DNA from: a virus
Reading direction: 5' to 3' (one strand)
Virus record (IMG/VR): IMGVR_UViG_3300023179_000062
Span: 1-64,000 of that record
Length of the DNA: 64,000 nucleotides
The translations under genes and the position numbers were made by a program. Positions 4,706 through 21,866 of the stretch are shown piece by piece. The notes under the pieces were generated by a model that saw only the letters and a list, made by a program, of their open reading frames with translations, did not search any database and had not been told where the DNA came from. Position 1 is the first letter of the stretch; each line of letters starts with the position of its first letter.

Positions 4706-5416
4706 ATGGGTTTTTCTAAATTTTTCAACGAGCATTTTATTAAGAAGCCGATAGATTACGATACATGGGATCGTCAATTATTAGATAAGGGATGGGAGCG
4801 GAAGGGTGAGGGATCATTTGGAATTGCTTATGTGCATCCTAATAAGGATTACATTTATAAAATCTTTCGGAATGATCCGGGGTATGATTTCTTTTTAAAG
4901 TTTGCATTACAAAATCAAAAGGACAAGAGTGTTGTTAAGTTGAAGCGGGTTGTTTTGAACAATGCGGCATCTCCTGATGAAAACTATTTGTCGAGTAAGT
5001 CTATTCCGAATGTTATCGTATTGGAGAAGCTTACCCCGTTGCGGGATAAAATCTCAAACTACGATTTGGTGTTTAATGCATCGTTCATAATAATGAAAAG
5101 TTTAGATCAAGTGTACAAAGATGGGATGACATATGAGCAAGCAATTGCGGCTCTCTTGGATTATGCAAAGAAACAATATGCATCGGCATATAAGAATATA
5201 ACTAATCGGAAGGATTATGCATTAAAGGTTTGGCGGCGGATGATTAATTTGCTTCGTTCTCCTATGATGTATAAGTTACCTATTTTCCGTACTATGTATA
5301 ATTTGTTTATATTTAGAAAAGAAAATGGGAGCGAGCGTTATTGGGATTTACACGATGGGAATTTGATGTATCGGGAATCCACCGGGGACATTGTATTAAC
5401 TGATCCGTTTGTTTAA
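4706..5416 (+). CDS. protein kinase-like fold protein (Ser/Thr or APH-like)
   Basis: Gly loop GEGSFGIAY, beta3 Lys (IYK), catalytic DLHDGNLM, DPF; TATAAATA upstream. Confidence 0.8.
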   Translation: MGFSKFFNEHFIKKPIDYDTWDRQLLDKGWERKGEGSFGIAYVHPNKDYIYKIFRNDPGYDFFLKFALQNQKDKSVVKLKRVVLNNAASPDENYLSSKSIPNVIVLEKLTPLRDKISNYDLVFNASFIIMKSLDQVYKDGMTYEQAIAALLDYAKKQYASAYKNITNRKDYALKVWRRMINLLRSPMMYKLPIFRTMYNLFIFRKENGSERYWDLHDGNLMYRESTGDIVLTDPFV

Positions 5417-5455
5417 TTAACTATTCTTATAAATATTGTATATATATATATATAT

Positions 5456-6649
5456 ATGAGATTTAAAGATTTTTTTCAAGAAATGTTCGTGCCTAATAAA
5501 TTATTATTGGAGGTGGATTGGTCTATGTGGCAAGATGTTAACAAAACTTGCATGAGTGCAGAACAGGTTGCAGAGATGTTGAATACTGAATTAAAAAGAG
5601 GTGAACATAATAGAACTGCAAAATCAAAAGATAATAAAAGTCCTAATAAAAATGATCCAAGATTCACCGCAAATACATTAGAAAGAAGTCGGGGAGAAAA
5701 TGGATTCATTGACGTAGAAAAATTTATTAAGGAAATTAATAAATTGCCTGCTACTATTTTTGATGTGGGGGAGAAATCTTCCCACACTATTACAGCGAAT
5801 ATTGTTACAGTGAATACTGGTATTCCTGCATTTCGTGCAATATTATGGGACGAGGAGCAAAAGGAATTTTTTGTAATCAACACTTGTCCGGCGGCATCAA
5901 AGTGCGCATCTTATTGTTATGCAATGCAAGGATATTACATAATCAATGACGGGAAAAATCTCAAGTTGGTTAATCGGTTACAGTTATTATTAAATGATCC
6001 TGTAGCATATGAGAAGCAAGCATATAGAGAATTGGAATCATATGCATGGCATGCAAAGCGCGACGGAAAAACTTTACAAATACGATGGAATGATGCAGGA
6101 GATTTCTTTAGTGACGTTTACATGGGAATTGCAGTAAAGTTACATAAAAAGTTAATTGCAGAAGGATATAATGTTAAAACCTATGCATATAGTAAACTTC
6201 ATAAAATGATTGAAATTGGAAAGTCTTTTGGATTTTCCATGAATTTTTCTACATCTGCAAGAAAAGCAGACGTTAATGCAATTGATTTTGCCACAACAAA
6301 GATTTCTGATATTATTCCAAAAGAAGTTTTCAAAGAGTTTTTCATCTCTAGTGGTAAAGGTTACAAGAAAGATAAAACAGGCAAAACATTATTCAGGAAT
6401 TCGTCTGATAAAGATGCATTCAAAGCCAAGGTTGTTGCATATTATAATAACCAATTACCTATTAAATTGGAAGAGCATCAAAAACAAATGGAAGGAAAAA
6501 TTAGTTTAAAATCATTAATATTCACGGATGAATTACCTTTAGAAGAAGGAGACACATTTAAATATAATGTAATCGTTTTACCGGGGGGAGATAGTGATAT
6601 TTCTGCCCAACGTACAGACGTACATTATACATTACTGTGCATGCATTAA
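5456..6649 (+). CDS. phage gp88-like, radical-SAM-related Fe-S protein
   Basis: TCPAASKCASYCYA Cys cluster, IRWNDAGDF and YAYSK motifs. Confidence 0.7.
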   Translation: MRFKDFFQEMFVPNKLLLEVDWSMWQDVNKTCMSAEQVAEMLNTELKRGEHNRTAKSKDNKSPNKNDPRFTANTLERSRGENGFIDVEKFIKEINKLPATIFDVGEKSSHTITANIVTVNTGIPAFRAILWDEEQKEFFVINTCPAASKCASYCYAMQGYYIINDGKNLKLVNRLQLLLNDPVAYEKQAYRELESYAWHAKRDGKTLQIRWNDAGDFFSDVYMGIAVKLHKKLIAEGYNVKTYAYSKLHKMIEIGKSFGFSMNFSTSARKADVNAIDFATTKISDIIPKEVFKEFFISSGKGYKKDKTGKTLFRNSSDKDAFKAKVVAYYNNQLPIKLEEHQKQMEGKISLKSLIFTDELPLEEGDTFKYNVIVLPGGDSDISAQRTDVHYTLLCMH

Positions 6650-6664
6650 TTTAGTTAATATTAA

Positions 6665-7462
6665 CTATTCCAATCTATTCCATAGAAGAACCTTATATAA
6701 TTCAGGGTCTTTTTGTTTAATAGTATTCAAATTTAATAATTCCCAATTACCATCATTTATTAAAACTATAAATGTTTTAAGTTTAGTTATTTCATTTGGG
6801 CCTAGAACCGTTTCGGCTCTTTCATATCCTGTTTTATCATTCATTCTATAGGATGGATAATCTCCGGTACCTTGATGGGTATCATAGTCGATACCTTTTC
6901 CGGTTTGTTGGCGATGTTTAATGGCATCACGTTTTTCATTTTCTGCGCCAAAATCCTCATACCATTTTACTGCATTAGGGTATTTAGGATATGCAATGGA
7001 TAAATATCCCGCATAATAATTTCCATAAACTTGATGGAGAATAGTTTGAAATGATCGTCCACGGGTTCCTCCGGTATCGGTTGCTTTAGAAAAGGTAATA
7101 GCATTTTTTGGTTGTTTTGCCCAATAGACGGTATCACCGGGAGATTTGGTATCGGTATCTTTTTGAAAAGGGTTTATTGTTTTATGTCCTCTGAATAAAA
7201 CCGGGGTGGATTCCGTCCCCAACTTCTCAGATAATTCATTTAAGTTTTTTGTATAAAAACCATACTTCCTAAATAAATCTTGTAGGCGAGTTTTTACAGA
7301 AGGTAGATCATGTAATTCCGAAGTATCTTGGGGTTGTTGTAACTCCTTGCTTCTACCTAAGTTATATGTTTTCCCGGTATAGTCTTGTAATTGATGGGCA
7401 TATCGAGGTTTACCCACAAATTGTGCCTCAGTTAATAAATTATACAATTCAGAAAATTTCAT
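6665..7462 (-). CDS. hypothetical protein, possible ADP-ribosyltransferase fold
   Basis: LFRG, VYWAKQPKNAITFS and AETVL arranged like ART motifs; leader MKFSELYNLLTEA. Confidence 0.45.
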   Translation of the reverse strand: MKFSELYNLLTEAQFVGKPRYAHQLQDYTGKTYNLGRSKELQQPQDTSELHDLPSVKTRLQDLFRKYGFYTKNLNELSEKLGTESTPVLFRGHKTINPFQKDTDTKSPGDTVYWAKQPKNAITFSKATDTGGTRGRSFQTILHQVYGNYYAGYLSIAYPKYPNAVKWYEDFGAENEKRDAIKHRQQTGKGIDYDTHQGTGDYPSYRMNDKTGYERAETVLGPNEITKLKTFIVLINDGNWELLNLNTIKQKDPELYKVLLWNRLE

Positions 7463-7466
7463 AGTG

Positions 7467-10400
7467 TTAATCTCCTGATCTTTTATAGAAGGATGGGGCT
7501 TTACCTAATCCTTTAATAGGGACATCGGTATCTCTCAAGGCTTGATCTTTATTAAGCATTCCTAGTTTTGCTTGAGCAAGTTTTTGACGATCTTCAAAGC
7601 GTTGTTGTTTAAGTTTCAGTGCTTCAGGAGAATGGTCTTTATGTCCCGTCATAAATTCTTCATGGGTATAGCACATAGGGGAATCGGCTTTACTTGAGTC
7701 ATAGTAGCTACTATCCATTTCGTATATATATTCTTCGGGATTTTGTCCCATGAATTTGAGAAGGTCCATGGTTGGTTTCACCAGATTATCTTGCCATCCA
7801 GTCCAATAGCTTATAATTTTGTTATGTGTCCACACACGCACTTCATATGCTCCTCTATCATGTTGTTTTTGTGCAATGTCATCTAGAGCAATATCACTCT
7901 TAATATCATTGATATCATCAGAAGGTTTTAACTCATGATCTTTTATACGACGTAAAGTACCCCGAAGATTTCCGTGTCCGGCTTTTTGTGGCGAAGAATC
8001 TTTTCTAAATACAAAGCTACCGGGAGTTCCATCTGTAAGCATTAATACGGTATAACTCTCTTCATTATTATTATAATGGATAGTTGTCTCTGGATCATTT
8101 CTATCTTTTATGTGGTCGGGGCTTTCGGTAAACATGTTTACGTTTTCTTTGATATCACCGTTTTGCACTAATGTTTTAATTTTAGCCATTAAAGTGTCAA
8201 GTGATTCTTTACCGAATACCTTTACCCATTCTTCCCTTGACAGACCCTTGGGTGTTCCCATAGGGGCTTCTTCTGTTACCCATTCACCGTTTACAAAATA
8301 TGCTAATTTAGTCTTATCAATATTTGCAGCCTCTATTAAATCATTCGTTTTACCGACATAGATAATCCATAACCATTTAGCATTGTCATTGAATTGTATA
8401 CCGGGAACCGCACTAGGATTTGTGAAGGGGCGGATTGCACGGGAAATTGCAAAGTTTTTGGTTAATGTACTTGATGATCCTTCTGTAGTCGTCTTTGTTT
8501 CTTCTTTCTCTTTATCCTCGCCCACATATTCTTTTATCTTCTCCTTTAATTCTGTCAAGGCGGCTTGACCGAACGTATTTGCCCAATCAATTCCTAACAT
8601 ACCCACATATTCCACATAGTCCTCTTCAGGCGTCTCATCAGTCCAGTCACCATTAACGAAATAAAATAATTTATCAATAGGTATCTTTGCTTTTTTAACT
8701 AAATCAGTTTCTATGCCTAAGTAGATAACCTTTAGATTTTTTGTCAAGCCATTGGCTGCAATATTTTTCATATGCATTGAAGAGCCAATGAAGGGACGCT
8801 GCGCACGACGAATGGCAAATGCTATCAATTCATCTTGTTCAGAAGGACTGAGAGTTTTTAGTTGGGGAGCAACAGTAGCAACGGGTGTTATTTGTTCCGG
8901 TTTAACAACAACGGCTGTTTTACCTAATTGAGTGAATGCATAATCTCCGAAGATTGAGCGCCATACGGGACTAGTAATTGCATATGAGGTATTGTGCCAT
9001 CCGATCATATGATCCTCATGATGTTTGATCCATGTAGAGTTCGTTGTATCATATAGAAATAATTTTTCTTCGGGAATCTTTGCCTTCTCGATTAATGGCC
9101 CCATGCCTACAGATATTAATAACCGTGATTGAATATGTGCATCCGTGGCAAGAAATGCTAGATTAGTACCTTTCAATTTACCATTATTGAAAAACGGTAC
9201 ATTTGCAATAGTCAATGCTTGTGTTACCAGATTATCATTTACCTTTGGTTTGGTTGTTCCTGTTAAATCACTTAGATCAGGGTCGGGTAATTTATTAGGT
9301 GTAGAGGTACTGTCGTTCTCTGCCAATACTTTAAAGAAGTCTTTAAAGCGGAATGATTCTCCATTGAGATAACGCTGTTGTACTCCCATAGCAGGTTTTG
9401 GTTTTACTCCCATTTGAATAAGGGCTTCTTTCTTTTCCTCAGGAGGAAGCCCATGAACCACTTTTTGCCAATCACTAGTATTAGTAGACTTTTTATTAAC
9501 TAAATCTTTTCTTTCGGGTTTATTTGTTAATGAAGCTAAACTGACGGGATCGGTGTTATCTAATTCCCATTGATATTCATTAGGATTACCTCCTATTAAT
9601 TTAATCATTTCGATTATTTTTGGTAAGTTATTTTTTACATATACAGACTTGTTCCAAAACGAAATATAATTATGTTCTGTCCAAATTCTACCTTGTATAC
9701 ATTCGGGTAGTTTTCGTAACATGAATTCTCTGTCGGTATCCGGTCCTGCATATGATAAAAGTTTAACAGATGGAGTACCATAAAAGGTTAACAGGGATTT
9801 CCGGTGTTTGTTACCATGAGTAAATGCGTCATCAATATATTCAAATAAACCGGAATGAAATACTTTATTACTATTGGTAAGACATATAAAATCTTGATGA
9901 ACAATAAAGGTTCGGGCATCGGGCATTCGCCATCCTAAACTTTCTTCTTCTATTCCATCAACAGGTTCTGCTAAAGGAAACCATGTCACTGAATGATCTG
10001 GAGATTCCTTAAAGAAGTCCTTGAAACTTTCCCCCATTGCATATCTTGCTTCTACACCTTTTGCGGCTTTCGGCTTTACACCCATTTGAATAAGGGCTTC
10101 TTTCTTTTCCTCAGGAGGAAGCCCATGAACTATATGGGAAGTATCTGCGGCTTTAATAGGTGTTTGAGTTGGAGCAAGTTTGAAGAATTGCGAATATTTC
10201 AAAAAGGTATCTTCATTATCCCTACCATTATAAAAATTATATTTCATCTTTGTAGGGTCTTTACCGTATAATTTAACTACTCGTTCGACAGTCTTTTTGT
10301 CCTCAGAAGAGAATGAATCTGCGGAATTCCAAAAAGATACAATATCATGTTGCATAGATATTCTACCTAAGAACCCATCATCAACTGCATCTAAGAATGT

Positions 10401-10715
10401 GCCGCGTCTAATATCGGCTACTCTTTTATTTTTTAGAAAATTTATAACATTTTCGGGGGCGACTCCTATTTGTCTATAATATGGTTCAGACCTTTTGAGG
10501 TCATCTTCGGTGCTTATTGAGTGAACCATGTCACTGTATTCAAGTTTAAAAATATTTTTCTTTGCTAGACATAGTAATTCCCAATGTGTTGCAACCTGAT
10601 TATCATAAAAATACATGATGAAATTCCCACAAAACCCAAAGGTAAGTGCGCTTTTATCGCCCATATATAAATCATCAGGGTCTTCGGTTAATAAAAAAAA
10701 GTCTTTGAATCTCAT
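7467..10715 (-). CDS. 1082-aa modular, polyprotein-like putative internal head protein
   Basis: Leader RFKDFF repeated internally; three GRI...ISFWN-type domains and three W..FG-type repeats. Confidence 0.75.
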   Translation of the reverse strand: MRFKDFFLLTEDPDDLYMGDKSALTFGFCGNFIMYFYDNQVATHWELLCLAKKNIFKLEYSDMVHSISTEDDLKRSEPYYRQIGVAPENVINFLKNKRVADIRRGTFLDAVDDGFLGRISMQHDIVSFWNSADSFSSEDKKTVERVVKLYGKDPTKMKYNFYNGRDNEDTFLKYSQFFKLAPTQTPIKAADTSHIVHGLPPEEKKEALIQMGVKPKAAKGVEARYAMGESFKDFFKESPDHSVTWFPLAEPVDGIEEESLGWRMPDARTFIVHQDFICLTNSNKVFHSGLFEYIDDAFTHGNKHRKSLLTFYGTPSVKLLSYAGPDTDREFMLRKLPECIQGRIWTEHNYISFWNKSVYVKNNLPKIIEMIKLIGGNPNEYQWELDNTDPVSLASLTNKPERKDLVNKKSTNTSDWQKVVHGLPPEEKKEALIQMGVKPKPAMGVQQRYLNGESFRFKDFFKVLAENDSTSTPNKLPDPDLSDLTGTTKPKVNDNLVTQALTIANVPFFNNGKLKGTNLAFLATDAHIQSRLLISVGMGPLIEKAKIPEEKLFLYDTTNSTWIKHHEDHMIGWHNTSYAITSPVWRSIFGDYAFTQLGKTAVVVKPEQITPVATVAPQLKTLSPSEQDELIAFAIRRAQRPFIGSSMHMKNIAANGLTKNLKVIYLGIETDLVKKAKIPIDKLFYFVNGDWTDETPEEDYVEYVGMLGIDWANTFGQAALTELKEKIKEYVGEDKEKEETKTTTEGSSSTLTKNFAISRAIRPFTNPSAVPGIQFNDNAKWLWIIYVGKTNDLIEAANIDKTKLAYFVNGEWVTEEAPMGTPKGLSREEWVKVFGKESLDTLMAKIKTLVQNGDIKENVNMFTESPDHIKDRNDPETTIHYNNNEESYTVLMLTDGTPGSFVFRKDSSPQKAGHGNLRGTLRRIKDHELKPSDDINDIKSDIALDDIAQKQHDRGAYEVRVWTHNKIISYWTGWQDNLVKPTMDLLKFMGQNPEEYIYEMDSSYYDSSKADSPMCYTHEEFMTGHKDHSPEALKLKQQRFEDRQKLAQAKLGMLNKDQALRDTDVPIKGLGKAPSFYKRSGD
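9409..10130. repeat. 50-bp perfect direct repeat (9409-9458 and 10081-10130)
   Basis: cccatttgaataagggcttctttcttttcctcaggaggaagcccatgaac, encoding VHGLPPEEKKEALIQMG. Confidence 0.95.
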
Positions 10716-10722: not shown

Positions 10723-11256
10723 TTATTTATGCTGAACCATGAAACGGTAATTATGAAATTTCTTATTCTTTCCGTGAACTCGTCGCATTTCATCGGAACT
10801 ATGAATGTAACGATTTACTTTAGTTGATATTTCATAGATACTAAAAATAAAAGCATCCTTATATTGTTCATAGAGTTTGATCCAAAACCCCAATCCCGCA
10901 GGAGTCATTGTGGTGTCTGATAGAATATAAGAATATTTCTTCAGAAGATATTCCATATAAATTGCCCGTGCAAGACCTTTATATTTCGGATTTTGTTGAA
11001 TTAAGTTCTCTTCGATACCGGAACGTTTAAGATAAAACCCTACTTCCGCAGCAACCTCCTGATCATTATGAATAAAATATAAATCAGTATCACCGTTGTT
11101 CACTTCCCAAACATCATACTCAATATTATTCAATTTAACCTTTTCAACAAATCGTCCCATCTTTTTTATATGGGGAATCGTTTCCTCCATTTTCAAATCA
11201 ATGTCAACCCGTTGAGGCATCTCTAATAGTAATTTATAGAGAAAATCAAATTTCAT
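10723..11256 (-). CDS. putative GNAT-fold acetyltransferase-like protein
   Basis: PKYKGLARAIY...SD..MTPAGLGFWIKL resembles GNAT motifs A/B of phage proteins. Confidence 0.5.
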   Translation of the reverse strand: MKFDFLYKLLLEMPQRVDIDLKMEETIPHIKKMGRFVEKVKLNNIEYDVWEVNNGDTDLYFIHNDQEVAAEVGFYLKRSGIEENLIQQNPKYKGLARAIYMEYLLKKYSYILSDTTMTPAGLGFWIKLYEQYKDAFIFSIYEISTKVNRYIHSSDEMRRVHGKNKKFHNYRFMVQHK

Positions 11257-11259
11257 AAA

Positions 11260-11694
11260 TTATGGAGTAACAGTAGGAAGTCCTTGTGTGATTGCATTCG
11301 AGAGAGCTTGAAGGATAGGAACAAGATTTTCCACCGAAGCAATTTTATTAGTTACCGCAGTATTATAGTATGTCTTATAAAGAACAACTAATGCATTTGC
11401 TACATTTAATGCTTCAGGGGTTTGGAGTTCTTTAATCTTTGAAGATTTGATGGTTGCTGCTAATGTATCAGGTGAAAGGTCTTGACCAAGGGCAAAAGTA
11501 TTAATTACTGTCACCAAATCCTTAAGATATGGGATTGCTTTTGGTTGTTTTTGAACACCGATACTAACAGTAGGAGGAACAGTGACACTTATAATGACGG
11601 GTGCATTGGTTAAAATTGCTTGTGCTGTCGGAGTTTTACATCCAGTAAGAACTAAGCAAGAACCAAGTAATAAAGAGATAATTAAGTTTTTCAT
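11260..11694 (-). CDS. putative lipoprotein
   Basis: Signal peptide ending in lipobox LTGC. Confidence 0.7.
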   Translation of the reverse strand: MKNLIISLLLGSCLVLTGCKTPTAQAILTNAPVIISVTVPPTVSIGVQKQPKAIPYLKDLVTVINTFALGQDLSPDTLAATIKSSKIKELQTPEALNVANALVVLYKTYYNTAVTNKIASVENLVPILQALSNAITQGLPTVTP

Positions 11695-11704: not shown

Positions 11705-13456
11705 TTACTCTTCTTGCATAGCCATCATCAACCCATCAATTTCTTTGAATATCTTGGTTTGTATTTTTTTGATGTTTCTTTTTACATTAAGCAAATTACT
11801 TATTATAGTGTACATGTCGTTCGGATCATCCATTGTAAATGATAATTCAACGTTTAGTACATCCCTTTCCCATGAACATGTCTGATTCTTTCTATTCATA
11901 ACATTATTCAATGTAGGTTCATAAAACATATAAAACAACAAACGTTTCTGGTTGTTGATTTGGTCAATAACCGTATCCAGATTTTCACTAAATTTGTTGG
12001 TATTGTTCCATGCCCGTTGGAAAGGGACTTCAAATGTAGTATTAATTCTTACAAAAATATAAGGATGAGCGTCTCTATTTACAGGTTGTGCATGAACTTT
12101 GAAACGGGGGCGAAGTCTGGATTGGTAAGAATTTAAAATATTGTTAACTTCGTCTTGCCACGAAACAACATGATTAGTCTTGTGTCGTATCGCTTTATAC
12201 TCGTTTTTTCCAAAGAAATTATTTAACAAATATTCAAGTGATTCGTCTGAATAATCTCCACCCACAAGAACTATATTATTTTGTGCATAGTTATATTCAG
12301 GAGGATTTTTGAAAATTGGTTGATGTTGTCGGACATAATCTAAAATATTTTCATAGATGTCAGGAGTGATATATCCATATTTTTGTTCAGATTGCAAAGT
12401 AGTGGGAACCGCAAAATCTTTTCCCGTTTCAATATCAACAAATCTACGTAAACGGATACGCCCTATAGGGGCGATACTGCCCGTATTTCTATCAGAATCA
12501 TGAAATATATCTTTGTCATTTAAGTTATTTCTAACTCTTTTCCCGTCAGAACCTTTTATTAAATACACAATTCCTCCGTCATTTTGGGCATCAGCAATTG
12601 CACACTTGGCATAAGTTCCGTCTTCAGAAGAGTACTTTCCTCCCCCTAGTCTGTGACAGGACGAGATACCTTTATGATCTGCCATGCGCAAAACATCAAT
12701 AGGATGGCGTGAAAATAACAAATAATAAAACATATTATTTTGGTCAATTGTCTGTTTCAATGCTCTTAAATGATTTATAGGTTGTACTTTTTCTTTCTTA
12801 ATATTATCAAGAATAACACGGATGGAATGGTAAACGCCGTTACCTAATGTGTTCAATGAATCATTAAATCCGCCACGGATAAATTCTACTCGAATATGAA
12901 TTATATCGTCTATTAATTTCTTTATAGTTTGTACATCCAATGGTTCATTTAATTTATAATTTTCTCTAGTATATGCATTGGCTTTAAGCGTCATGATCAT
13001 ACTTTTATCATGGGTATATAGTTCGTATGTATCTGCGGTGTTGTCATTTTCGAAATGAGGATGGTACGATGTTAGAAATTCTATTATGCGATCTAGTGGA
13101 TTATCTTTATATGCATGAATTTTATATCTTATAAAATTTTGAATAAGTTTATCTTTTATACCACTGACATCTATACGATTATATGCGTCCATCAATTCAA
13201 TCATCTTTTCTTTAAGGGCCGTGTTGATATTTTTACCATGTAATTGTCTATTAGGAAAATCGAAATCGGATAATGCCCATCCTAAATTTTCTGATGCTTT
13301 TTGAAATTTTGGATTAAATACCTTGACTAAGAAACGTTCCCCATGTCCGTTAAACAGGTCATTAAATGGGCGATCAGATACCTTATCCACCGCATCTTGG
13401 ATTTTATCAACAAAACTTTGCTGAGCTTCTAGAAATAATTTAAAGGAATCCGTCAT
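11705..13456 (-). CDS. hypothetical 583-aa protein
   Basis: Conserved-looking core SRHPIDVLRM...SSCH...PIGRIRLR; leader MTDSFKLFLEA. Confidence 0.7.
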   Translation of the reverse strand: MTDSFKLFLEAQQSFVDKIQDAVDKVSDRPFNDLFNGHGERFLVKVFNPKFQKASENLGWALSDFDFPNRQLHGKNINTALKEKMIELMDAYNRIDVSGIKDKLIQNFIRYKIHAYKDNPLDRIIEFLTSYHPHFENDNTADTYELYTHDKSMIMTLKANAYTRENYKLNEPLDVQTIKKLIDDIIHIRVEFIRGGFNDSLNTLGNGVYHSIRVILDNIKKEKVQPINHLRALKQTIDQNNMFYYLLFSRHPIDVLRMADHKGISSCHRLGGGKYSSEDGTYAKCAIADAQNDGGIVYLIKGSDGKRVRNNLNDKDIFHDSDRNTGSIAPIGRIRLRRFVDIETGKDFAVPTTLQSEQKYGYITPDIYENILDYVRQHQPIFKNPPEYNYAQNNIVLVGGDYSDESLEYLLNNFFGKNEYKAIRHKTNHVVSWQDEVNNILNSYQSRLRPRFKVHAQPVNRDAHPYIFVRINTTFEVPFQRAWNNTNKFSENLDTVIDQINNQKRLLFYMFYEPTLNNVMNRKNQTCSWERDVLNVELSFTMDDPNDMYTIISNLLNVKRNIKKIQTKIFKEIDGLMMAMQEE

Positions 13457-13812
13457 ATATTTTTCTGTATCAATTTTATGAACGATGGGGGAATATCCGC
13501 CCGTGATATAATTTCCAACATTTGTGGATCGGTGACAAGAGGAAAATTATCCGGTAGGGTAACGGATAACAAATGTAACAAATCATCTTCTGCAAAATTT
13601 TCCCGTAACCAGTTATTCACCGCTTCTTTCACATGCGCTAATGATTTAAATAATAAAACTCTAGGTGGTTCATTTGTCTGTTCGGTGTTATTACCTTGTT
13701 GGGCCAATATCCCCTGTTTCAAAATATAAGAAAGATCAGAATCTTTACATACATGATAGAAGGTTTTAGCGGTGGCTTGTTCCTGTAAAAGAAAAAAATC
13801 TTTGAATCTCAT
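13453..13812 (-). CDS. small ART-fold protein (Tpt1/KptA/DUF952/Arr-like)
   Basis: FYHV...ILKQGI...RVLLF...DIPPSFI pattern; leader MRFKDFFLLQE. Confidence 0.55.
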   Translation of the reverse strand: MRFKDFFLLQEQATAKTFYHVCKDSDLSYILKQGILAQQGNNTEQTNEPPRVLLFKSLAHVKEAVNNWLRENFAEDDLLHLLSVTLPDNFPLVTDPQMLEIISRADIPPSFIKLIQKNI

Positions 13813-13822: not shown

Positions 13823-16800
13823 TTATAATTCCTCTTTTTGTAAGTACTCATATATATCTTTCCACCCTTTTTCGCTTACATAATATTTAATATTAGGATT
13901 GGTTCCTATCATACCGTTGGAATACATTTTGGTGGCAGGTTTATAAGCATATAAATCTTTATGAGAGAACATCGGACATAGGTTTACAAGTTTAGCATGT
14001 ACCGAGCCTTGGGGTGAATCGCTTTTTGCCCCATTTCCTACACAATATAAAGTTACTGGTCCGTATATGGTTTTTGCATCTTTGATGATTTCCGTCATGT
14101 CATCCGCAATATCATAGAACATATCAAACTTTTTCTGTTTTTCATCGGCTTGTTGGCTTTTTATTATCTCCTTAACCTTTGGTACATTTTTCAAAGTTTC
14201 GGAAGGTCCGAACACTGATTCCCATTTAGATAGGAGCATATAATAATCCATTGATTCTGATGATCCATATTGCCCTGCTTCGAAATATGGATTTTGACCG
14301 GGATGGTATGCATGGATATCATAATATCCTGCTTTGTCTCCCTTGACGGATTGTAAAATAGTATATATGTTTGGGTCGCCTCCCTTACCTAACCATACCA
14401 TAGTAGCATTATTATGTGCAGGATCAATTTTGGTAGTTTCTGGCGATGCCCTATTCTTCATTGCCTCAAATAATTGAGGAGATTGATCCTTGTAAAATAT
14501 ATCTGGTGGGGGTTCGTTGAAAATCGCTTCCCATGTATGTGATGTAACATAGTACATATTTTTACTAACATTTCCCTTGGTATGATTTTCCCAATAGTCC
14601 GAAGATTTATAATATAGTTCATTAGATTTGATTCCTAATATATCACTTATATTAGGGCTTTCTTTTCCAAATCCGACAGGCACCATAAAATGGATGCCGT
14701 TCTTTTTCTGAATCTGGTACTCAGGTGTATTTGCAATTTGGCGTATATCAAGACGTTGTTTGTCCAATTTTTCTTTATATATGTTTAGTTCATCGACTAT
14801 CCCTTCGGGTAAAGGTCCGAAAATATGTTCCCAACTTTCTCTAGTTATATATAATTTATATTCTTCATACTCTACATGGCTAGACACTGATCGAGTATTA
14901 CCTTCTGCTGTATAAGTTGGGGTATCCAATATCAAGTCATAAAACACTACATTAGATGATCTACCTACATACATTAGATTTTTAGAACATAATAATGTAT
15001 TGTCAATGTTATCAATGCCTCGATTACGCAATTCATCCATAGATGAATTTTTGTCGAAAATATACTTAGATATTAGTGTATAGAAATATGTGGCATCCCC
15101 AAGTTTATCATTTTCTCGTAAAATTTTTGCTACTCCTAAAAATAATTCCTTCTTATCATTTACTATCCATCCTTGGAAATCTATATGTTTTAAATATAGT
15201 GTCCAATCTGTATCGCTCATATCTATAAATGGCTGTAAAGAACCTAACCGTGCTAAAACAAACTTTATTGCATCATGAACTTTACTTATATGTTGAGGGC
15301 GAGCATATGCTTCTAAACTATTCAAAACATTATATAGATTGTCTCCATCAATTAACAATTTTTTATCTAATTCTGTAGAATTCATTACTGTTCTGATAAA
15401 GGAAGTATTTGCTTGTATGCTCAGTTCCTTTTTAATTCTCTGATATAATTCTTCATGGGATAATGGAATCGCTGTTATCTCATTGGAATGTATTGCATGC
15501 ATAATAATTTCACGCTGTCTTACAGGAGAGATTTTATCCCATATAATATGATTAATGTCATCTATACCACCCCTTAATGCATATAATATATTAGAAGAAC
15601 TATATTTATTAAAGAATGTATCCGTGCTTAATTTTTTAATTACATCTATTGCATGTGGGTCAGTATTTAAAATATTTGCAAGTAGATCATTTTTTGTTTT
15701 ATTGTGAATTGCACTATAGGAATTGAACATGCTGCTATATATTAATTCAGTCCGTTGATTAGGAGATATACTATCCAATAAATTTTTAGAATTGATGAAT
15801 GTATCTGCGTATGATGAGAGTATAGCCTGATAATAGTAAGTGTTCTTTGAAAACTTTTTTAGAATTGCCTGTAGAGTTGACTTGGGCCATGTTTCAAATA
15901 TAGACGGTTGTTTATCTACGCTAGGGTCACAATTAAATAACTGTTGAAGATTATTATAAAAATCCGAAGTAACTTCTTCATCGTCTCCTATTATTGCCCG
16001 TTCAATGTCTTTCCATACTAATTCGGGGACTTTATGTGTTTTAACATATTCAGCAATAATTTGGACAGGGACTGGTTCTGTATTAAAATTACGTGCCAGA
16101 TTAACTACCATGTAATGGTTAGGGGTTTGTGAATCAGACATGGTATCTATCAGGTTCATCAACTTTAATGTGGATTCAATTTTGTCGGTGTAAGAGTTGT
16201 CGCCTCTCCCAAAAATATAACTAAGTTTATAAAAAAAACTTTTATTAAATGTGTTCTGGTTAAAATTTAAACAAAGGTTTAATAATACTATTGCATATTT
16301 TTGTAAACCATCAATAGCCTTCTGTGAGGTTGATTCGTCTATTTCAAATGAGTCAATACGTGATTGTAGATATTTTATAAAATTTTCTGGTACTGGGGGA
16401 TTTGTGCCTATACCATATCTAACTATATTTTTAAGTACAAGAGTAGTCAGAGTGTCTACAGAGAGTGATGCAAATTGATATTCGGGAATTCTATGTAACA
16501 TCTTATACGTTACGATGTTATTAATCACCATAGACACAAAAGCGGATTTCTTTTTAAGCATAGCATCTATAGCTTTAGCAGGGTATTTATCATTCCTAAG
16601 CGCCTCTCTAATATTTTGTTCGAGTTTATTGACAGAATGTTCACCGACCTCACTCCAGTTTTTGTTTTCAATTTTTTCAAGAACCTTGACAAATTTTTTA
16701 CCAAATACTACGCTTTGAGTTGGTTCGTTACTATGGATTGAACCTGATCCCGTATCATCAATAAAAATCGGGCATCCTATCTTTATCATTAGATTGGACC

Positions 16801-17386
16801 AATATGCACAGTGTTTACATTGTGATAGAAATTTTATCGAAGTGGAACCATCTGTTGATCTTTTATGTGTCTCCGTCATGGATATTTGTCTGACTACGGA
16901 CCATAATGTTTTAAATGGGGTCTGTTTATACATACAATCCAGTTGATCCAAAATCTTTTTAATATCTTCTAATGTATATGGAGTAACTTCAGTAATAGCT
17001 TTAATTTTATCCTCTAAATTTTCTTTTGAGAAATCGCTTGATCTGACCGCCTTATAACCATCGGCAGGTTCATATACATAGACCGTCGGGCGTTCTGCGG
17101 CAAATGGTAAAGATTTATGTTTAAAATTAGATTCCCACATGGGGGCAAGCACGTACCCATATATCCCTGTAGGGGTATCATATTGATTTCTTGGATTAAT
17201 CCCTACCCCCGGATCAAAGGTAGCTTTAACTTTTCCCGCGTTGTCATAATGAACAATATTATCTCGAAAAGATACCATCACATCTTTTCTATCTTTATAC
17301 TGTTCTAAAACTTCCACTACTGAACGGCGTGGAGTATCGCCTCGGCGGGCTTCTGAGAAGATGTTAAAAAAGGAACTGAAATTCAT
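13823..17386 (-). CDS. 1187-aa putative internal virion protein; possible N-terminal ART-like domain and C-terminal repeats
   Basis: GINP...TPTGIYGY and GSIHSNEPTQ motifs; helical middle; four W..[IV]F-type repeats; leader MNFSSFFNIFSEA. Confidence 0.65.
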   Translation of the reverse strand: MNFSSFFNIFSEARRGDTPRRSVVEVLEQYKDRKDVMVSFRDNIVHYDNAGKVKATFDPGVGINPRNQYDTPTGIYGYVLAPMWESNFKHKSLPFAAERPTVYVYEPADGYKAVRSSDFSKENLEDKIKAITEVTPYTLEDIKKILDQLDCMYKQTPFKTLWSVVRQISMTETHKRSTDGSTSIKFLSQCKHCAYWSNLMIKIGCPIFIDDTGSGSIHSNEPTQSVVFGKKFVKVLEKIENKNWSEVGEHSVNKLEQNIREALRNDKYPAKAIDAMLKKKSAFVSMVINNIVTYKMLHRIPEYQFASLSVDTLTTLVLKNIVRYGIGTNPPVPENFIKYLQSRIDSFEIDESTSQKAIDGLQKYAIVLLNLCLNFNQNTFNKSFFYKLSYIFGRGDNSYTDKIESTLKLMNLIDTMSDSQTPNHYMVVNLARNFNTEPVPVQIIAEYVKTHKVPELVWKDIERAIIGDDEEVTSDFYNNLQQLFNCDPSVDKQPSIFETWPKSTLQAILKKFSKNTYYYQAILSSYADTFINSKNLLDSISPNQRTELIYSSMFNSYSAIHNKTKNDLLANILNTDPHAIDVIKKLSTDTFFNKYSSSNILYALRGGIDDINHIIWDKISPVRQREIIMHAIHSNEITAIPLSHEELYQRIKKELSIQANTSFIRTVMNSTELDKKLLIDGDNLYNVLNSLEAYARPQHISKVHDAIKFVLARLGSLQPFIDMSDTDWTLYLKHIDFQGWIVNDKKELFLGVAKILRENDKLGDATYFYTLISKYIFDKNSSMDELRNRGIDNIDNTLLCSKNLMYVGRSSNVVFYDLILDTPTYTAEGNTRSVSSHVEYEEYKLYITRESWEHIFGPLPEGIVDELNIYKEKLDKQRLDIRQIANTPEYQIQKKNGIHFMVPVGFGKESPNISDILGIKSNELYYKSSDYWENHTKGNVSKNMYYVTSHTWEAIFNEPPPDIFYKDQSPQLFEAMKNRASPETTKIDPAHNNATMVWLGKGGDPNIYTILQSVKGDKAGYYDIHAYHPGQNPYFEAGQYGSSESMDYYMLLSKWESVFGPSETLKNVPKVKEIIKSQQADEKQKKFDMFYDIADDMTEIIKDAKTIYGPVTLYCVGNGAKSDSPQGSVHAKLVNLCPMFSHKDLYAYKPATKMYSNGMIGTNPNIKYYVSEKGWKDIYEYLQKEEL

Positions 17387-17399: not shown

Positions 17400-18383
17400 T
17401 TACATTTTAGGGAATAGGTGCTTCATACTGTAAAGTTTTTTCCAATAACTGTTAGTTCCTACAAAATATTTCACCACTTTACCAATACCCGGTAGTACCA
17501 TTATTAATCCACCATCAGAAGTATATCCTTCAAATTGTCCATCACTTATAGTTTGTTTTTCTAACATTTTCTTAAGAATAGCTCTCTCAATCATATTCGG
17601 GGCTTTAAATCCTCTTTTAATTAAAATATTTTTAATATCAAGTGATACCATTCCCCATAGAGGAACATTTGATTCGGATAATTCGAGCAATGCACGATAT
17701 TTGGATTTCATGCTTCCTGCTGTGGCTACAAATTTAACAAATCCACTCTGTTGAGGACGAACAGCCACATACCCTGACTCGTCTCCATAGAAATGCCAGT
17801 TTTGGGCTTTCTGAGTAAATTTATCTTTGGGCCATGCTTTTCCTGTAGAAGCCATATACTCTTTGTAGAAAATATCATATGCCTTATCCAAATCAAGATT
17901 AAGGATTCTCTCTTCTTTTAATAATTTTCGGCTCTCGGTGAGGTTCTTTCTTTGAAGAATTGGCACTAACCGTTCCATTCCGAAATGTAATTTTTCTGGA
18001 AAATCTTTAAGCGAGAACCATCTAACACTGCTCGTCTCTTTATCTAAGCGCGGTTTAAATTCATCAGGAACAATCCCGATAAAATTGTGGAAAGTGAATG
18101 CTCCTTTGCGATATATATCTAAAGTGTATAAAGAAACTTCTCCTGTATACCCTATTTCTTCATGTAATTCTCGGATGGCTGCTTGATTGGCAGTTTCTTT
18201 CCCGTCTATAGCACCACCAAACAAACCCCATGTGTTAGGTTGATCCACATAAGGAGAACGTAATCCTAACAAGAAACGTTGTGTTTTTTTACAAAATATT
18301 AAAACACCTGCTCCGCGTTTACCCCAAAAATTGGTAGGTTCTGTTGATTCAAGTATAAGTTTGGCTAATCTATCGAAAGTCAT
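17400..18383 (-). CDS. Nudix hydrolase fused to an unknown C-terminal domain
   Basis: Nudix box GAIDGKETANQAAIRELHEEIG. Confidence 0.9.
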   Translation of the reverse strand: MTFDRLAKLILESTEPTNFWGKRGAGVLIFCKKTQRFLLGLRSPYVDQPNTWGLFGGAIDGKETANQAAIRELHEEIGYTGEVSLYTLDIYRKGAFTFHNFIGIVPDEFKPRLDKETSSVRWFSLKDFPEKLHFGMERLVPILQRKNLTESRKLLKEERILNLDLDKAYDIFYKEYMASTGKAWPKDKFTQKAQNWHFYGDESGYVAVRPQQSGFVKFVATAGSMKSKYRALLELSESNVPLWGMVSLDIKNILIKRGFKAPNMIERAILKKMLEKQTISDGQFEGYTSDGGLIMVLPGIGKVVKYFVGTNSYWKKLYSMKHLFPKM

Positions 18384-18391
18384 CTAATTAT

Positions 18392-20242
18392 TTATGTATC
18401 TATTAGTTTTTCCGTTAGAACATAATTTAATACTTCTTCGATTACTCCCCCATCAGAATACCAGTCAGAGTATGAAGATAGCGCAGGAGACAAACTATTT
18501 CTATAATCATTATAATTAATAATTCCTTCAACCGGATTATTCTGTGGAGTTTGGTTCCATTCAAAGAAACAGAAATTTTCAATTCCTTTGTCCAATATTG
18601 GGGTAGCGGTTAAGGTTGATAATTTGAAAGTATCTTCGGTTTGGCGTTTGACATTTAAAAAGTTAAACACATCAGACCCTCGTTCCCTATAGAGTACTGT
18701 CTGCCCATCACTGATATTATCTGTTAAGGCTAATTGTTTTCCAAGATTACTTTTCTTATCAAACCCACATAAAGTACATACATTTTTATTACATGAATTT
18801 TGACAATTAACAAAATTGGTATTACATTTGCAACGAGTTCCTATTAGCTTCTGTAGTGGAATAGAAAAGAAGTTCATTAAACGTCTCAACTCTTCGGGGA
18901 AATCTAGGTTGAAATTGTCCATGCTTACATCAAATTGCTGAGAGAGGTTATATAAGGAATCAATAGTACATACATCAACATCTGAATGATCTGGTGTAAA
19001 GTTTTGAATCTTGTCATATATTAAACCTAATGAATCGCCTTCTCCTGCCACCGCAGATAGATACGAATTAAACGTAGGAAATTGTTCTATGTCAACATGG
19101 GAATATCTTTTAATTAGATTATAAATATTATCATCTTCGCCTTTTCTATAGAACTGATGGAAGTTATCAAATTTATAAATATTGAATGGATCGGATATAC
19201 CTGTTAGATGATATATCTTACCATCCACATTGAACACGCCGGATGCAGAAACAGTTAATTGGTAAGGATATTTACGAGTTTTAATGGTATGGGTTTCGTA
19301 CGGATTCTCCCCACATGCAATTTCTGGTGATATGATTTGGTCCGCAGGTAAAGCCGATGTAGGAAGAATAAAATTCTGAATAGCATATGGATATATTTTA
19401 CTAAGGAATGTTTCATATTTAGCATCCGGTATACCATTACATTCAGTATAATACTTAACTCCTGTTAAGTATCCAGACACATAATGTAATAATGTTGAAC
19501 AACTTATATTAGAATTAGCAATAGTTGTCATAAACGGTGTTTTATAATCTGTCCATTGCAGAGGTGGAAGCGGATTAATTCCATCACTGGTTATTTTAAT
19601 CATATTGGGAGCAATAGCTGATACCGTATGTCGTATTGCCGCATATGCGCGTGAATTTATGAGTATGTTTTTTTCGTTTTGTTTAAGAGTGAAGAATAAC
19701 CACGGCTTCCCCGGCATATCATCTTTATAAGAAATTGCGGATGATGCACTATAGCCCAATAAAATGTTGGCACTGATAACAGGTGAGCATGTAACCGATA
19801 TCTCCGATATCTTATTATCGTTTGCATCATAAAACCCCCAATTAGGTTTCAAATGTCCCCAAAACGAATCGTTATCCACGACAGGAGATGCCTTACTTCC
19901 GCTGGCATAAAGGAATACTGTAGCCGTGGGTTCTGTTGATGATATATTTAATGTTAATGTCTGTGGACAACTAGTAAATGCAGACAGCACATCATATGAC
20001 ACATTAATGGTATTCCGATATAACACATTAGGAAATGCAGATACTTGAAATGCAGATACTCTGTTACAATTAGTGACGAAGATATCATATATATTTGCCG
20101 CAGTATAGTAATGTTGATTAGTGTTGAGATTATCAATTACTCCGTCTCCCCAATTGACAATATATGATCCAGATAACCCCGAATATGATAGGGTGAATAT
20201 GGTGTCTAGGGTATAACCTGAAAGTGGAGAGATATTAATCAC
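18392..20242 (-). CDS. virion/baseplate structural protein (PKD-like N-terminus)
   Basis: VNWGDG...HYYT..Y.I PKD motif; DVDVCTIDSL; Cys-rich segment; near gp25 and gp6. Confidence 0.55.
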   Translation of the reverse strand: MINISPLSGYTLDTIFTLSYSGLSGSYIVNWGDGVIDNLNTNQHYYTAANIYDIFVTNCNRVSAFQVSAFPNVLYRNTINVSYDVLSAFTSCPQTLTLNISSTEPTATVFLYASGSKASPVVDNDSFWGHLKPNWGFYDANDNKISEISVTCSPVISANILLGYSASSAISYKDDMPGKPWLFFTLKQNEKNILINSRAYAAIRHTVSAIAPNMIKITSDGINPLPPLQWTDYKTPFMTTIANSNISCSTLLHYVSGYLTGVKYYTECNGIPDAKYETFLSKIYPYAIQNFILPTSALPADQIISPEIACGENPYETHTIKTRKYPYQLTVSASGVFNVDGKIYHLTGISDPFNIYKFDNFHQFYRKGEDDNIYNLIKRYSHVDIEQFPTFNSYLSAVAGEGDSLGLIYDKIQNFTPDHSDVDVCTIDSLYNLSQQFDVSMDNFNLDFPEELRRLMNFFSIPLQKLIGTRCKCNTNFVNCQNSCNKNVCTLCGFDKKSNLGKQLALTDNISDGQTVLYRERGSDVFNFLNVKRQTEDTFKLSTLTATPILDKGIENFCFFEWNQTPQNNPVEGIINYNDYRNSLSPALSSYSDWYSDGGVIEEVLNYVLTEKLIDT

Positions 20243-20246
20243 TCAT

Positions 20247-20567
20247 TTATTTATTAGAAAATATATGGGGATTTCGGTCTTTAAATTCTTTAATTTTCTG
20301 TGTAGCTGTTGCACTCATTAATATATCATGGGTGTGGATGTGTAAGAATTGTAAATATTCCTGCTTTAAGTCCATACTTCTTTGAAATGCATCACGAAGT
20401 CTTTGGGTGTACGTCTTACGCGGGAACATGTCTTGGTTTAGATGTAACTTGTACAGTTTAGTACATGATGCGCGTACTTTCCTATGTAAAGTATTGATCT
20501 TTTGTAATAGTTCAGTATCTCCATTTGAAGATTCTGTTATTAATGAATAAAGTTGCTCAAATTTCAT
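20247..20567 (-). CDS. small helical hypothetical protein
   Basis: Leader MKFEQLYSLITES. Confidence 0.65.
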   Translation of the reverse strand: MKFEQLYSLITESSNGDTELLQKINTLHRKVRASCTKLYKLHLNQDMFPRKTYTQRLRDAFQRSMDLKQEYLQFLHIHTHDILMSATATQKIKEFKDRNPHIFSNK

Positions 20568-20863
20568 AATTTTATAGCTTTCAGTACATCGTTGAAATCG
20601 AGATACATGCGTTTAATGTCAGGATAGTGTAGAATTGTATCCATATTACTATTCACAAAATTTTTATATTCCTTAGCAGATTGAGTAAGTATCTCGCTCA
20701 ATTTGGCGTTTTCTTCTGGACGAACTTCTTGATAATTACCAAGATTTATCTGTTTGTGTAAATTTATAATCTTAGACTGTAACTTCTTAATATCATTCGA
20801 TAGTGTAATTTCTCTATCGGAGAAAGCCTCATTTAATATCCTAACATAATCATTGAAAAACAT
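20564..20863 (-). CDS. small helical hypothetical protein
   Basis: Leader MFFNDYVRILNEA; TAAATA upstream. Confidence 0.65.
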   Translation of the reverse strand: MFFNDYVRILNEAFSDREITLSNDIKKLQSKIINLHKQINLGNYQEVRPEENAKLSEILTQSAKEYKNFVNSNMDTILHYPDIKRMYLDFNDVLKAIKL

Positions 20864-20867
20864 ATAG

Positions 20868-21338
20868 TTATTTATAAAAGAATATAAAATCCCCTGTATT
20901 TGTAAGCGATGTCTGAATTACCAGTTGTTTATTGTTTAAATTAGGAAGATTTACTATAATAGCCACAATATAAGCGCCTTTATCATAATCAGGAACGACT
21001 AGAATTTTCTCTACTGTAACACGGGGTTCAAACAATGCAATACCTTTATCTATGGTATTACCCAATGCGGTTGCTCCCATATCGGATACGGTTTGTCCAA
21101 TAAAATTTGACAAATCAATATTAAAAGAGGGGGTCAAATATCTTTTCTGTGTTAGAATATTTCTTATGGAGTTAAGAATAGCTGATTCGTCTGTATCACT
21201 TATAAGATCATTTCCTAACACTGTATCAGCATTTCTCGTATTGTCAGATACGCGGTTCAGTTGAAAATCTAATTTAAGATCACGGAAAGTTGTTGAACTA
21301 TTATTCTTTTTTCCTGAAAGATTACTAATGGTTATCAT
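20868..21338 (-). CDS. gp25: baseplate wedge subunit, gp25-like
   Basis: FRDLKLDF, AILNSIRNILT, PSF and FEPRV motifs. Confidence 0.85.
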   Translation of the reverse strand: MITISNLSGKKNNSSTTFRDLKLDFQLNRVSDNTRNADTVLGNDLISDTDESAILNSIRNILTQKRYLTPSFNIDLSNFIGQTVSDMGATALGNTIDKGIALFEPRVTVEKILVVPDYDKGAYIVAIIVNLPNLNNKQLVIQTSLTNTGDFIFFYK

Positions 21339-21365
21339 TTAATTATTTATATTATATGATAAATA

Positions 21366-21866
21366 ATGGATATGTCCAAATTTTTAGAACTTTATGAAAG
21401 TGTATTAGAGTCAGTTACACTCGGAACTATTCGCCCACAATCCGTAGTGGTTATTGATCCAGAGATGATCAAACACAAAGATATTGCAAATGATATTATT
21501 CAAAGAAAAGGTGTGAGTTACCTTGCACAGTTACAGAAACTTGCAAATGATAAAGCATTGTTATATGTGTCCGCATTAAAAACAGTTCGTCCAGTTAGTA
21601 ATGTTCATGCTGCTCTTCCAACCAGCAATGATTTCCAAGAAGCTGATGTTATCAATTATTCACCGGGGCTAAGCAGCACATGGCATGCACCCATGACCTT
21701 GCCGATATCTGTATTAAAGAGCATAGTTGAACCAGAGAATATTATGCAAATACCTGTCCCCGGTAAAGAAACCCCTCAAGGACAATCCACAGGTGATAAT
21801 TCGTACAATAACGGAACACAGCATCCTAATGTAGTAGGACAGAAGGAAAAAAGAAAAGGTAAGTAA
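21366..21866 (+). CDS. hypothetical protein
   Basis: Leader MSKFLELYESVLES; TAAATA upstream. Confidence 0.7.
   Translation: MDMSKFLELYESVLESVTLGTIRPQSVVVIDPEMIKHKDIANDIIQRKGVSYLAQLQKLANDKALLYVSALKTVRPVSNVHAALPTSNDFQEADVINYSPGLSSTWHAPMTLPISVLKSIVEPENIMQIPVPGKETPQGQSTGDNSYNNGTQHPNVVGQKEKRKGK

Follow-up and report, generated by a model that had tools for sequence, protein, structure and literature searches.

Leader-bearing genes in the window

The DNA analyzed here, referred to as the window, covers positions up to 64 kb in one 85,486-bp viral contig (IMG/VR record IMGVR_UViG_3300023179_000062, positions 1 to 64,000; G+C content, 34.8%). In this contig, a series of otherwise unrelated proteins begins with a similar short peptide, which we call the leader. 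PHROG and Pfam scans mapped a T4-type morphogenetic module in the window, containing baseplate wedge, portal, neck, sheath-stabilizer, Peptidase_S77, scaffold-position, major capsid protein (MCP), sheath, tube, and large terminase genes. The MCP is 31% identical at best to those of cultured phages in the collection searched, and the closer relatives form a clade in IMG/VR with MCP identities of 53 to 99%. A block of leader genes (4706-21866) adjoins the baseplate wedge genes on the opposite strand. A first-pass annotation of this DNA had read the block as a possible arsenal of head-packaged effectors. It does hold 12 genes for candidate cargo proteins, and it also encodes a lipoprotein, a 616-residue structural-looking protein, and a gp25-like wedge protein.

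On the plus strand, the block opens with the gene of a protein-kinase-like enzyme (4706..5416; leader MGFSKFFNE/H, where the slash marks the predicted cleavage position; TAAATA 7 nucleotides [nt] before the ATG), followed by a GP88-family gene (5456..6649; MRFKDFFQE/M; Pfam PF17338, 1.3e-18). The next nine leader genes lie on the minus strand. They encode a protein of 265 residues with no Pfam or PHROG match (6665..7462; MKFSELYNLLTE/A), a polyprotein-like array of 1082 residues that carries internal leader-like peptides in addition to its N-terminal MRFKDFFLLTE/DPD (7467..10715), and a protein of 177 residues (10723..11256; MKFDFLYKLLLE/M) whose orthologs in the related contigs G002 and L004 to L006 retain the leader MKFNELITLLE/M. 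Proteins of 583 residues (11705..13456; MTDSFKLFLE/A), 119 residues (13453..13812; MRFKDFFLLQE/Q), and 1187 residues (135 kDa; 13823..17386; MNFSSFFNIFSE/ARRGDTP) come next. The last three are a Nudix hydrolase with an additional C-terminal domain (17400..18383; MTFDRLAKLILE/S; Pfam NUDIX, 6.9e-17), a basic protein of 106 residues with an isoelectric point (pI) of 9.9 (20247..20567; MKFEQLYSLITE/S), and a protein of 99 residues (20564..20863; MFFNDYVRILNE/A). A plus-strand gene for 164 residues (21372..21866; MSKFLELYE/S; start moved from 21366) closes the block.

A short leader shared by unrelated proteins

The leader is 9 to 15 residues long, with an aromatic or hydrophobic residue at position i and again at i+3/4 and with [L/I/F]-x-E at its end; when the final motif is widened to [L/I/F/Y/T/M]-x-E, 23 of 24 leaders conform. 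Its targeting-type residues are either F3 plus [F/L/Y]6-7 or F5 plus [F/Y]8. Three forms can be distinguished: type 1, M-[K/R/N]-F-x-x-[F/L]-[F/Y]-...-[L/I]-x-E; type 2, M-T-x-x-F-D-x-[F/Y]-V-x-x-I-[I/L]-x-E; and class B, ...L-x-x-[I/L]-Y-E. In total, 21 leader proteins were found in the window and 24 in the contig, with the starts at 21372 and 60168 corrected by the promoter box that lies 5 to 6 nt upstream. The 24 proteins amount to 6,762 residues, or 24% of the contig, and leader genes occupy 83% of the block. These figures bear out the first-pass count of about 20 unrelated leader proteins, and the N-termini quoted at that stage are all present, two of them with refined starts.

Beyond the block, the window encodes two small, basic proteins resembling T4 internal proteins (IPs), both with type 2 leaders: one of 10 kDa and pI 10.6 (35461..35760, plus strand; MTPEFDKFIQEILTE/A) and one of 13 kDa and pI 10.4 with a DUF6321 domain (45618..46019, minus strand; MTEQFDEYVTSILE/S). 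Overall, strong basicity (pI 9.9 to 10.8) marks four small cargo proteins of 10 to 16 kDa. A 51-residue product (35764..35919, plus strand; MNFLELLMCE/E) is a weaker candidate. Directly after the protease gene, an acidic 95-residue protein carries a class B leader (45128..45415, plus strand; MNTHSELELIYE/N); it is conserved in all relatives together with its L-x-x-I-Y-E leader. It is followed by a 69-residue DUF5661 protein with a type 2-like start (45412..45621, plus strand; MTQKFDKFVNDLIS; Pfam PF18905, 2.2e-11). The remaining members are proteins of 293 residues (53626..54507, minus strand; MTLHQLYQLLIKE/D), 87 residues (55098..55361, plus strand; class B, MESPQLENLYE/S), 321 residues (acidic; 59203..60168, minus strand; type 2, MTSYFDSYLHTIIE/N; start set by a TAAATA 5 nt upstream), and 257 residues (acidic; 61950..62723, plus strand; class B, MENNLDLVNIYE/N).

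The strict motif M.F..[FLY][FY].{1,5}E occurs in 8 of 97 N-termini, whereas 0.04 would be expected from internal positions of the same proteins. When residues 2 to 20 of each N-terminus were shuffled, the mean fell to 0.03; the motif followed none of 427 internal Met residues and 1 of 361 starts of spurious open reading frames (ORFs). An artifact of A/T bias was considered as the cause of the motif and rejected. Furthermore, the motif recurs in four related contigs. For patterns defined here, at most 0.1 occurrences of each would be expected in relatives; types 1 and 2 and class B were counted 4, 3, and 2 times in G003; 3, 3, and 1 times in G004; and 0, 3, and 2 times in G001. The enrichment over shuffled and background sequence that the first-pass annotation had named as a requirement is present, and it extends to relatives. 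Met-anchored regular expressions were far more specific than a right-aligned, eight-column position-specific scoring matrix (PSSM) of the leaders, which gave a modest separation in these relatives. No leader was found in the MCP, portal, sheath, tube, baseplate wedge, neck, or large terminase proteins or in the early enzymes with sigma70-type promoters.

The proteins behind the leaders differ. With their leaders set aside, the 24 proteins showed no BLASTP similarity to one another (all E values > 0.1), and paralogy was rejected on these grounds as the cause of the motif. A related possibility is that the shared N-termini are functionless remnants of duplication or recombination, hitchhiking at cassette boundaries. 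The start MRFKDFF is indeed present three times, and the region is plastic between relatives. Nevertheless, similarity stops at the end of the leader, and the copies differ at synonymous sites, that of 13453..13812 being distinct from the other two; across kinase orthologs with about 29% identity, F3 and E9 are invariant even though the leader length shifts by five residues. The pattern is also kept across 244 protein clusters made at 50% identity (described below), and we regard a hitchhiking origin as extremely improbable.

Orthologs also exchange one leader for another. The GP88 ortholog in G004 has a type 2 leader where this phage has type 1, and homologs of the 1187-residue protein carry leaders of 6, 12, or 13 residues, among them MKILSE/ and MNFFKYFYNLFWE/, before the same conserved mature N-terminus (ARR...). 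AlphaFold2 (AF2) models of two unrelated cargo proteins both contain a short helix at residues 3 to 8, detached from the domain. The leader thus behaves as a portable, swappable appendage, outside the protein fold in both models. Relatives that share about 73% MCP identity carry strongly differing cargo.

Late promoters and start codons

Nearly every late gene has an NTAAATA box that ends 5 to 9 nt before the ATG and has no Shine-Dalgarno sequence; a box at this distance from an ATG is present 37 times in the window versus 14.9 ± 3.8 times in shuffled sequence. Among leader genes, those without a TAAATA 5 to 9 nt before the ATG directly follow, or are translationally coupled to, a gene that has one. 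This arrangement is shared by the genes for the MCP, portal, scaffold, and protease, and to judge from these promoters, leader genes would be expressed at the same late stage as the prohead proteins. If the T4 spacing rule applies, transcription would yield leaderless mRNAs. Early-type promoters lie equally close to the start (for instance, TTGACA-N17-TATAAT 5 nt before the ATG of an RNA ligase gene at 48307), and the close spacing holds across 4690-62802 of the window and in the contig beyond. Some genes internal to operons do have AGGAG, such as the one before 7462.

This geometry raises the question of whether the leader is a by-product of leaderless translation, its first codons being selected at the RNA level to be A/U rich and unstructured. 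On this view, mRNAs would begin at the ATG or a few nucleotides from it, and the selection would yield similar peptides. The boxes end as close as 5 to 9 nt before an ATG with no Shine-Dalgarno sequence, and leaders are rich in F, K, N, Y, I, and L, whose codons are A/U rich. Conversely, about 30 structural late genes, as well as early genes, share the promoter-to-ATG geometry and have no leader, in agreement with the first-pass statement that tail, baseplate, and neck proteins and the sigma70-driven enzymes lack it. Conserved leader residues are encoded by differing synonymous codons (TTT/TTC, GAA/GAG, and five Leu codons), the motif is lost from shuffled N-termini, and leader-like peptides recur at polyprotein junctions, where no initiation takes place. 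We therefore consider selection on translation initiation a very unlikely origin of the leader.

Prohead protease and resemblance to T4 capsid targeting

A prohead protease of the gp21 family is encoded at 44442..45122 (plus strand; Peptidase_S77 [PF03420], 1.6e-18; PHROG 207, 2.8e-35). It aligns to the T4 gp21 structure (PDB 5JBL) at 2e-7, with the equivalents of the catalytic residues His85 and Ser140 conserved. Its presumed substrates in the capsid look similar to those of T4: the propeptide of the MCP (50676..52232, plus strand; PHROG 138, 1.8e-79) contains the sites KILE33, IILE56, and VIQE74, and the aligned T4 gp23 propeptide has LLE, IFE, and LTE65/. The gene at the gp22 position, before the MCP gene, encodes a scaffolding protein assigned by this position, with no family match (49742..50650, plus strand); its N-terminus, MLNELQPIFE/QIDKNLFNE/D, carries [L/I]-x-E-type sites like T4 gp22 and resembles a class B leader.

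In T4, the 10-residue capsid-targeting sequence (CTS) MKTYQEFIAE is sufficient for packaging (PMC9026906, PMC8442874), with residues 4 and 7 (Y and F) responsible for targeting and residues 8 and 10 (I and E) for processing (PMC9026906). The internal proteins of T-even phages are a diverse, defense-countering set that have only the CTS in common (PMC3012670), and the CTS has been proposed as a general route by which T4-like phages load varied proteins (PMC9026906). Leaders in the T4 record are MKTYQEFIAE/A for IPII and IPIII, MKTFKEF...ITE/A for IPI, MELITELFDE/D for Alt, and MAKINELLRE/S for gp24, and gp23 is cut after LTE65. The early T4 protein gp61.1 (54 residues; NC_000866, 18966-19130, in the primase region) begins with MKTFKEFIKE/D, which is CTS-like and has the same start as IPI.

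The leaders described here share this two-part architecture, with F3 plus [F/L/Y]6-7 followed by [L/I] at P3 and E at P1. In both phages, a short N-terminal propeptide (10 to 20 residues) with aromatic targeting residues at i and i+3 and an [L/I]-x-E end precedes otherwise unrelated late proteins, an S77 protease is encoded, the cargo combines small basic proteins with an enzyme, and cargo turnover between relatives is high. Moreover, T4 alt lies beside the baseplate genes 48 and 54 (PMC5512222), and the leader block is also beside baseplate genes. The two phages differ in scale and variety: at least 21 leader proteins occur in 64 kb (24 in 85 kb) here compared with about 7 to 8 in the whole T4 genome, three leader classes here compared with one in T4, and cargo of up to 135 kDa plus a polyprotein with internal leaders here. 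The IPII and IPIII leaders of T4 are identical at 30 of 30 positions in their DNA, unlike the copies in this contig.

We consider it likely that the leaders are T4-type capsid-targeting sequences cut after Glu by the gp21-family protease. Alternatively, the leader could be an amphipathic helix that serves some other purpose, for example to bind a membrane or a partner or to act as a degradation or secretion signal, unlinked to head and protease. The short detached helix in the AF2 models would suit such a role, and the link between leader and capsid was made here in silico. That alternative leaves unexplained the near-invariant Glu with L or I two residues before it, which is a gp21 site, as well as the strict tie to late, head-type promoters, the match to the mapped T4 CTS architecture (PMC9026906), and the constant end at Glu despite variable leader length; a helix with an unrelated function is, in our judgment, decidedly unlikely.

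A polyprotein-like array with leader-like junctions and the SPD module family

The 1082-residue protein consists of modules A (residues 1 to 228), B (229 to 454), C (455 to 858), and D (859 to 1082). Modules A, B, and D are homologous and about 225 residues long, and the central module C is different. A leader-like peptide stands at the head of each: MRFKDFFLLTE/DPD, GESFKDFFKE/SPDH, GESFRFKDFFKVLAE/ND, and NVNMFTE/SPDH. G003 encodes the modules in neighboring but separate genes, and every one of these has a leader of its own. The same prohead protease probably releases the modules of the polyprotein.

A profile search with the repeated module, here called the SPD module, retrieved 244 clusters (50% identity) among 1.84 billion representatives, ranging from stand-alone proteins of 215 to 250 residues to tandem arrays of up to eight copies. 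Among the best 150 matches, 120 have an N-terminal peptide, mostly of 10 to 12 residues, directly before [S/N/D/T]-P-D; P1 is Glu in 117 of these 120 and P3 is Leu or Ile in 100. The internal junctions of the same matches have L, I, V, or F at P3 in 102 of 108 cases, and the aromatic pattern at i, i+3, and i+4 is kept in a third of the internal junctions versus 7% of random 16-mers. One homolog carries a type 2 leader. The AF2 model of module B has a mean predicted local distance difference test score (pLDDT) of 86.6, with leader residues 1 to 10 below 50. Invariant or near-invariant positions of the module (9348-10031 of the window, minus strand) are P11, H59, R115, W117, S124, and W126.

The family has no match to described ones in the searches that were made. 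Pfam gave no match for 68 SPD-module members, Foldseek against the PDB gave nothing at an E value of ≤0.001, and the best Z score in a wide VIA-align search was 5.0, within noise. A word-index homolog search with module B returned nothing, tblastn of the module against cultured phage genomes gave no match, and a related-locus search in IMG/VR with the SPD proteins A2, P0038, and P0032 was also empty. For the 1082- and 1187-residue proteins, phmmer against the PDB found nothing, and neither protein has a Pfam domain.

Predicted functions of the cargo

The protein encoded at 4706-5416 is a protein-kinase-like enzyme, as the first-pass annotation had proposed. It matches PHROG 15752 (T7 0.7-type kinase) at 7e-10, and its orthologs hold GxGxxG (G34/G36/G39), K52, D214-x-H-x-x-N219, and D233 invariant. 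In the AF2 model (mean pLDDT, 79.3), residues 1 to 14 score below 50, and the top Foldseek matches are all kinase-like (APH(2''), CK2, PknB, and AceK; probability, 0.96 to 1.0; TM-scores, about 0.3). The T7 gp0.7 kinase serves host takeover and is made early from the injected DNA. The protein described here resembles gp0.7 in its PHROG, kinase-like fold, and motifs; given its late promoter and leader, it would arrive pre-made, like T4 Alt and unlike gp0.7.

The Nudix and GP88 labels are likewise upheld by the Pfam matches given above. Residues 147 to 317 of the Nudix protein are 51% identical to a stand-alone, leader-bearing protein of 176 residues in G004 (59283-59813). The Nudix cargo is a fusion, and the former leader inside it is now a decayed remnant (NLTESRKLLKEE).

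Other first-pass labels found no counterpart. Neither a GNAT match for the product of 10723..11256 nor, in Pfam or PHROG, an ADP-ribosyltransferase (ART) match for 6665-7462, 13453-13812 (the protein that had been called ART-like), or 13823-17386 was obtained, and no leader protein contains an HExxH motif or a Cys cluster, as the labels "metalloprotease-like" and "Fe-S" would imply. The Atlas search gave weak, subthreshold ART-PolyVal leads for 6665-7462 and 13823-17386 (0.88 and 0.80, respectively; below 0.9), and the sole match of the 583-residue protein is a weak C-terminal GNAT (E value, 0.022, below the cutoff).

Proposed mechanism and its weighing

Under the capsid-targeting interpretation, cargo proteins would be made late, alongside head proteins, and the leader helix, with its aromatic or hydrophobic residues at i and i+3/4, would bind the scaffolding core of the prohead. 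The gp21-family serine protease would then cut after the leader Glu at [L/I/F]-x-E, and the mature cargo would be retained in the head with the DNA, presumably to be ejected into the next host. The first-pass proposal of a portable leader cut by a gp21-type protease fits every in silico test that was run; packaging, core binding, cleavage, head retention, and injection, as well as the effector role, are steps that we infer.

Several observations weigh against this interpretation or limit its reach. The phage is uncultured and known solely from lake and freshwater metagenome sequence. The PSSM built from the window leaders ranks T4 IPII/III about 17th of 269 T4 ORFs, so the likeness to the T4 CTS is qualitative and architectural and not statistically significant; a core FKEF is shared with T4 IPI. 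In the complete but more distant relative G005, the head genes are the same, about six to eight looser leader-like proteins are encoded, and the motif classes are nearly absent. The fit of 135-kDa proteins in the head hinges on their copy number, and [L/I]-x-E-[S/N/D]-P-D could partly be a structural feature of the SPD module instead of a cleavage site. Finally, the 45412 product has no Glu at the usual leader position, and certain acidic leader proteins may belong to the core or scaffold and be degraded instead of being retained as cargo.

The last points lead to an explanation in which the leader does target the prohead core, but most of its bearers are assembly or scaffold parts that are degraded or expelled at maturation, as are T4 gp22, gp67, and gp68. 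It draws on the acidity of several leader proteins, on the class B-like N-terminus of the scaffold itself, and on the 45128 and 45412 genes, which stand at the positions of T4 genes 67 and 68. For these two products, a role as prohead-core components and not as effectors is indeed probable, the first being in a gp67/68-like position. As an account of most leader proteins, it is at odds with a kinase-like enzyme with intact catalytic residues, a Nudix protein, and small basic IP-like proteins, none of which is scaffold-like. Additionally, cargo turnover at an MCP identity of about 73% is the pattern of accessory genes in an arms race, not of assembly parts. We judge this explanation rather unlikely.

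Relation to known delivery systems and significance

The principle of the capsid-targeting leader is known from T4 and already stated in reviews (PMC3012670, PMC9026906); hence, the locus is not a new system, contrary to the first-pass label. What is new here is the scale of the cargo, the three interchangeable leader classes, the very large cargo proteins, which include two of 120 to 135 kDa, the kinase that would arrive pre-made, and the leader-delimited polyprotein with its large unannotated family.

Two other delivery strategies are comparable. In phiKZ-like phages (phiKZ, 201phi2-1, and SPN3US), a gp21-related protease processes ejection or inner-body proteins (PMC5694885, PMC7411985). 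Both there and here, many head proteins (8 to 19 in those phages) have a short motif with a Glu after which they are cut, or predicted to be cut, propeptides are presumed to direct proteins into the prohead, and a large protein mass is, or would be, ejected into the host. The phiKZ-like propeptides are mostly 80 to 270 residues long and end in S/A/G-x-E, whereas the leaders in this contig have 9 to 15 residues and end in L/I/F-x-E; the head module here is T4-like in gene content and order. The second strategy is that of the polyvalent proteins of phages and conjugative elements, which join disparate known domains, including ART-PolyVal, MuF, zincin peptidase, and methylase domains, and depend on MuF or on peptidases of their own (Iyer et al. 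2017, PMC5512222). Common to both cases are an arms-race repertoire and very large late proteins for which packaging, delivery along with the DNA, and cutting into active pieces are predicted. In contrast, the 1082-residue protein repeats a single unannotated module in tandem, with one other region and with CTS-like junctions, and the combination that defines polyvalent proteins (at least two disparate effector domains, MuF/zincin) was found in neither the 1082- nor the 1187-residue protein.

A broader proposal, which we put forward tentatively and regard as somewhat doubtful, is that, in an uncultured freshwater clade of T4-like jumbo phages, the CTS has become a general code for loading. Three swappable leader classes would serve more than 20 fast-changing cargo proteins, some of them made as leader-delimited polyproteins that the prohead protease dices inside the head, and the SPD module (with its 244 clusters, no Pfam family, and no known fold) would be a widespread, unrecognized class of head-delivered effectors.

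If the leaders work as in T4, they are a sequence tag that reveals which proteins are carried in the head and delivered before any phage gene is expressed. First-strike takeover and anti-defense proteins that are otherwise invisible in metagenomic phage genomes would then be exposed. The set described here would be the largest known for a T4-type head; it would bring together a kinase made in advance, a Nudix enzyme, and a new module family with a global distribution, and it would include a natural case of cargo polyproteins cut by a maturation protease. It would also provide wider rules for engineering protein packaging into T4-type capsids.

Other features of the contig and its relatives

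According to CheckV, contigs of 82 to 90 kb in this clade are about one-third complete and a 221-kb relative is complete; the genome is therefore estimated at about 220 to 260 kb, about a third of which is visible here. At least four studies yielded lake and freshwater metagenomes with near-identical DNA.

Three weak leader candidates with a late box were left out of the counts of 21 and 24. They are encoded at 46281-46730 (minus strand; MTYNNNKLECIVE/A), at 49539-49706 (plus strand; MTSEAQSHIQKFLYNLSME/N), immediately before the scaffold gene, and at contig positions 72112-72573 (minus strand; MFSILIYE/Q).

Within the block, the 144-residue lipoprotein without a leader (11260-11694, minus strand) has a late promoter, a signal peptide, and the lipobox LTGC; superinfection exclusion and a spanin-like function are possibilities for its role. 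The structural-looking protein of 616 residues lies at 18392-20242. The PHROG and Pfam scans placed the gp25-like baseplate wedge protein at 20868-21338, inside the block, a gp6-like wedge protein at 21891-23648, and the portal at 31030-33279.

An ORF of 252 residues without a late box (43669-44427, plus strand) separates the gp14-like neck gene from the prohead protease gene. It is endonuclease-like (phrog_20046, 5.7e-40; phrog_1111, endonuclease) and probably entered the head module as an insertion of the homing-endonuclease type. Within window positions 1-4600, the first 4.3 kb is unlike the remainder of the contig: G+C content is 48% at 2 to 4 kb, there are no TAAATA boxes, and short ORFs accompany one of 389 residues at 2809-3978.

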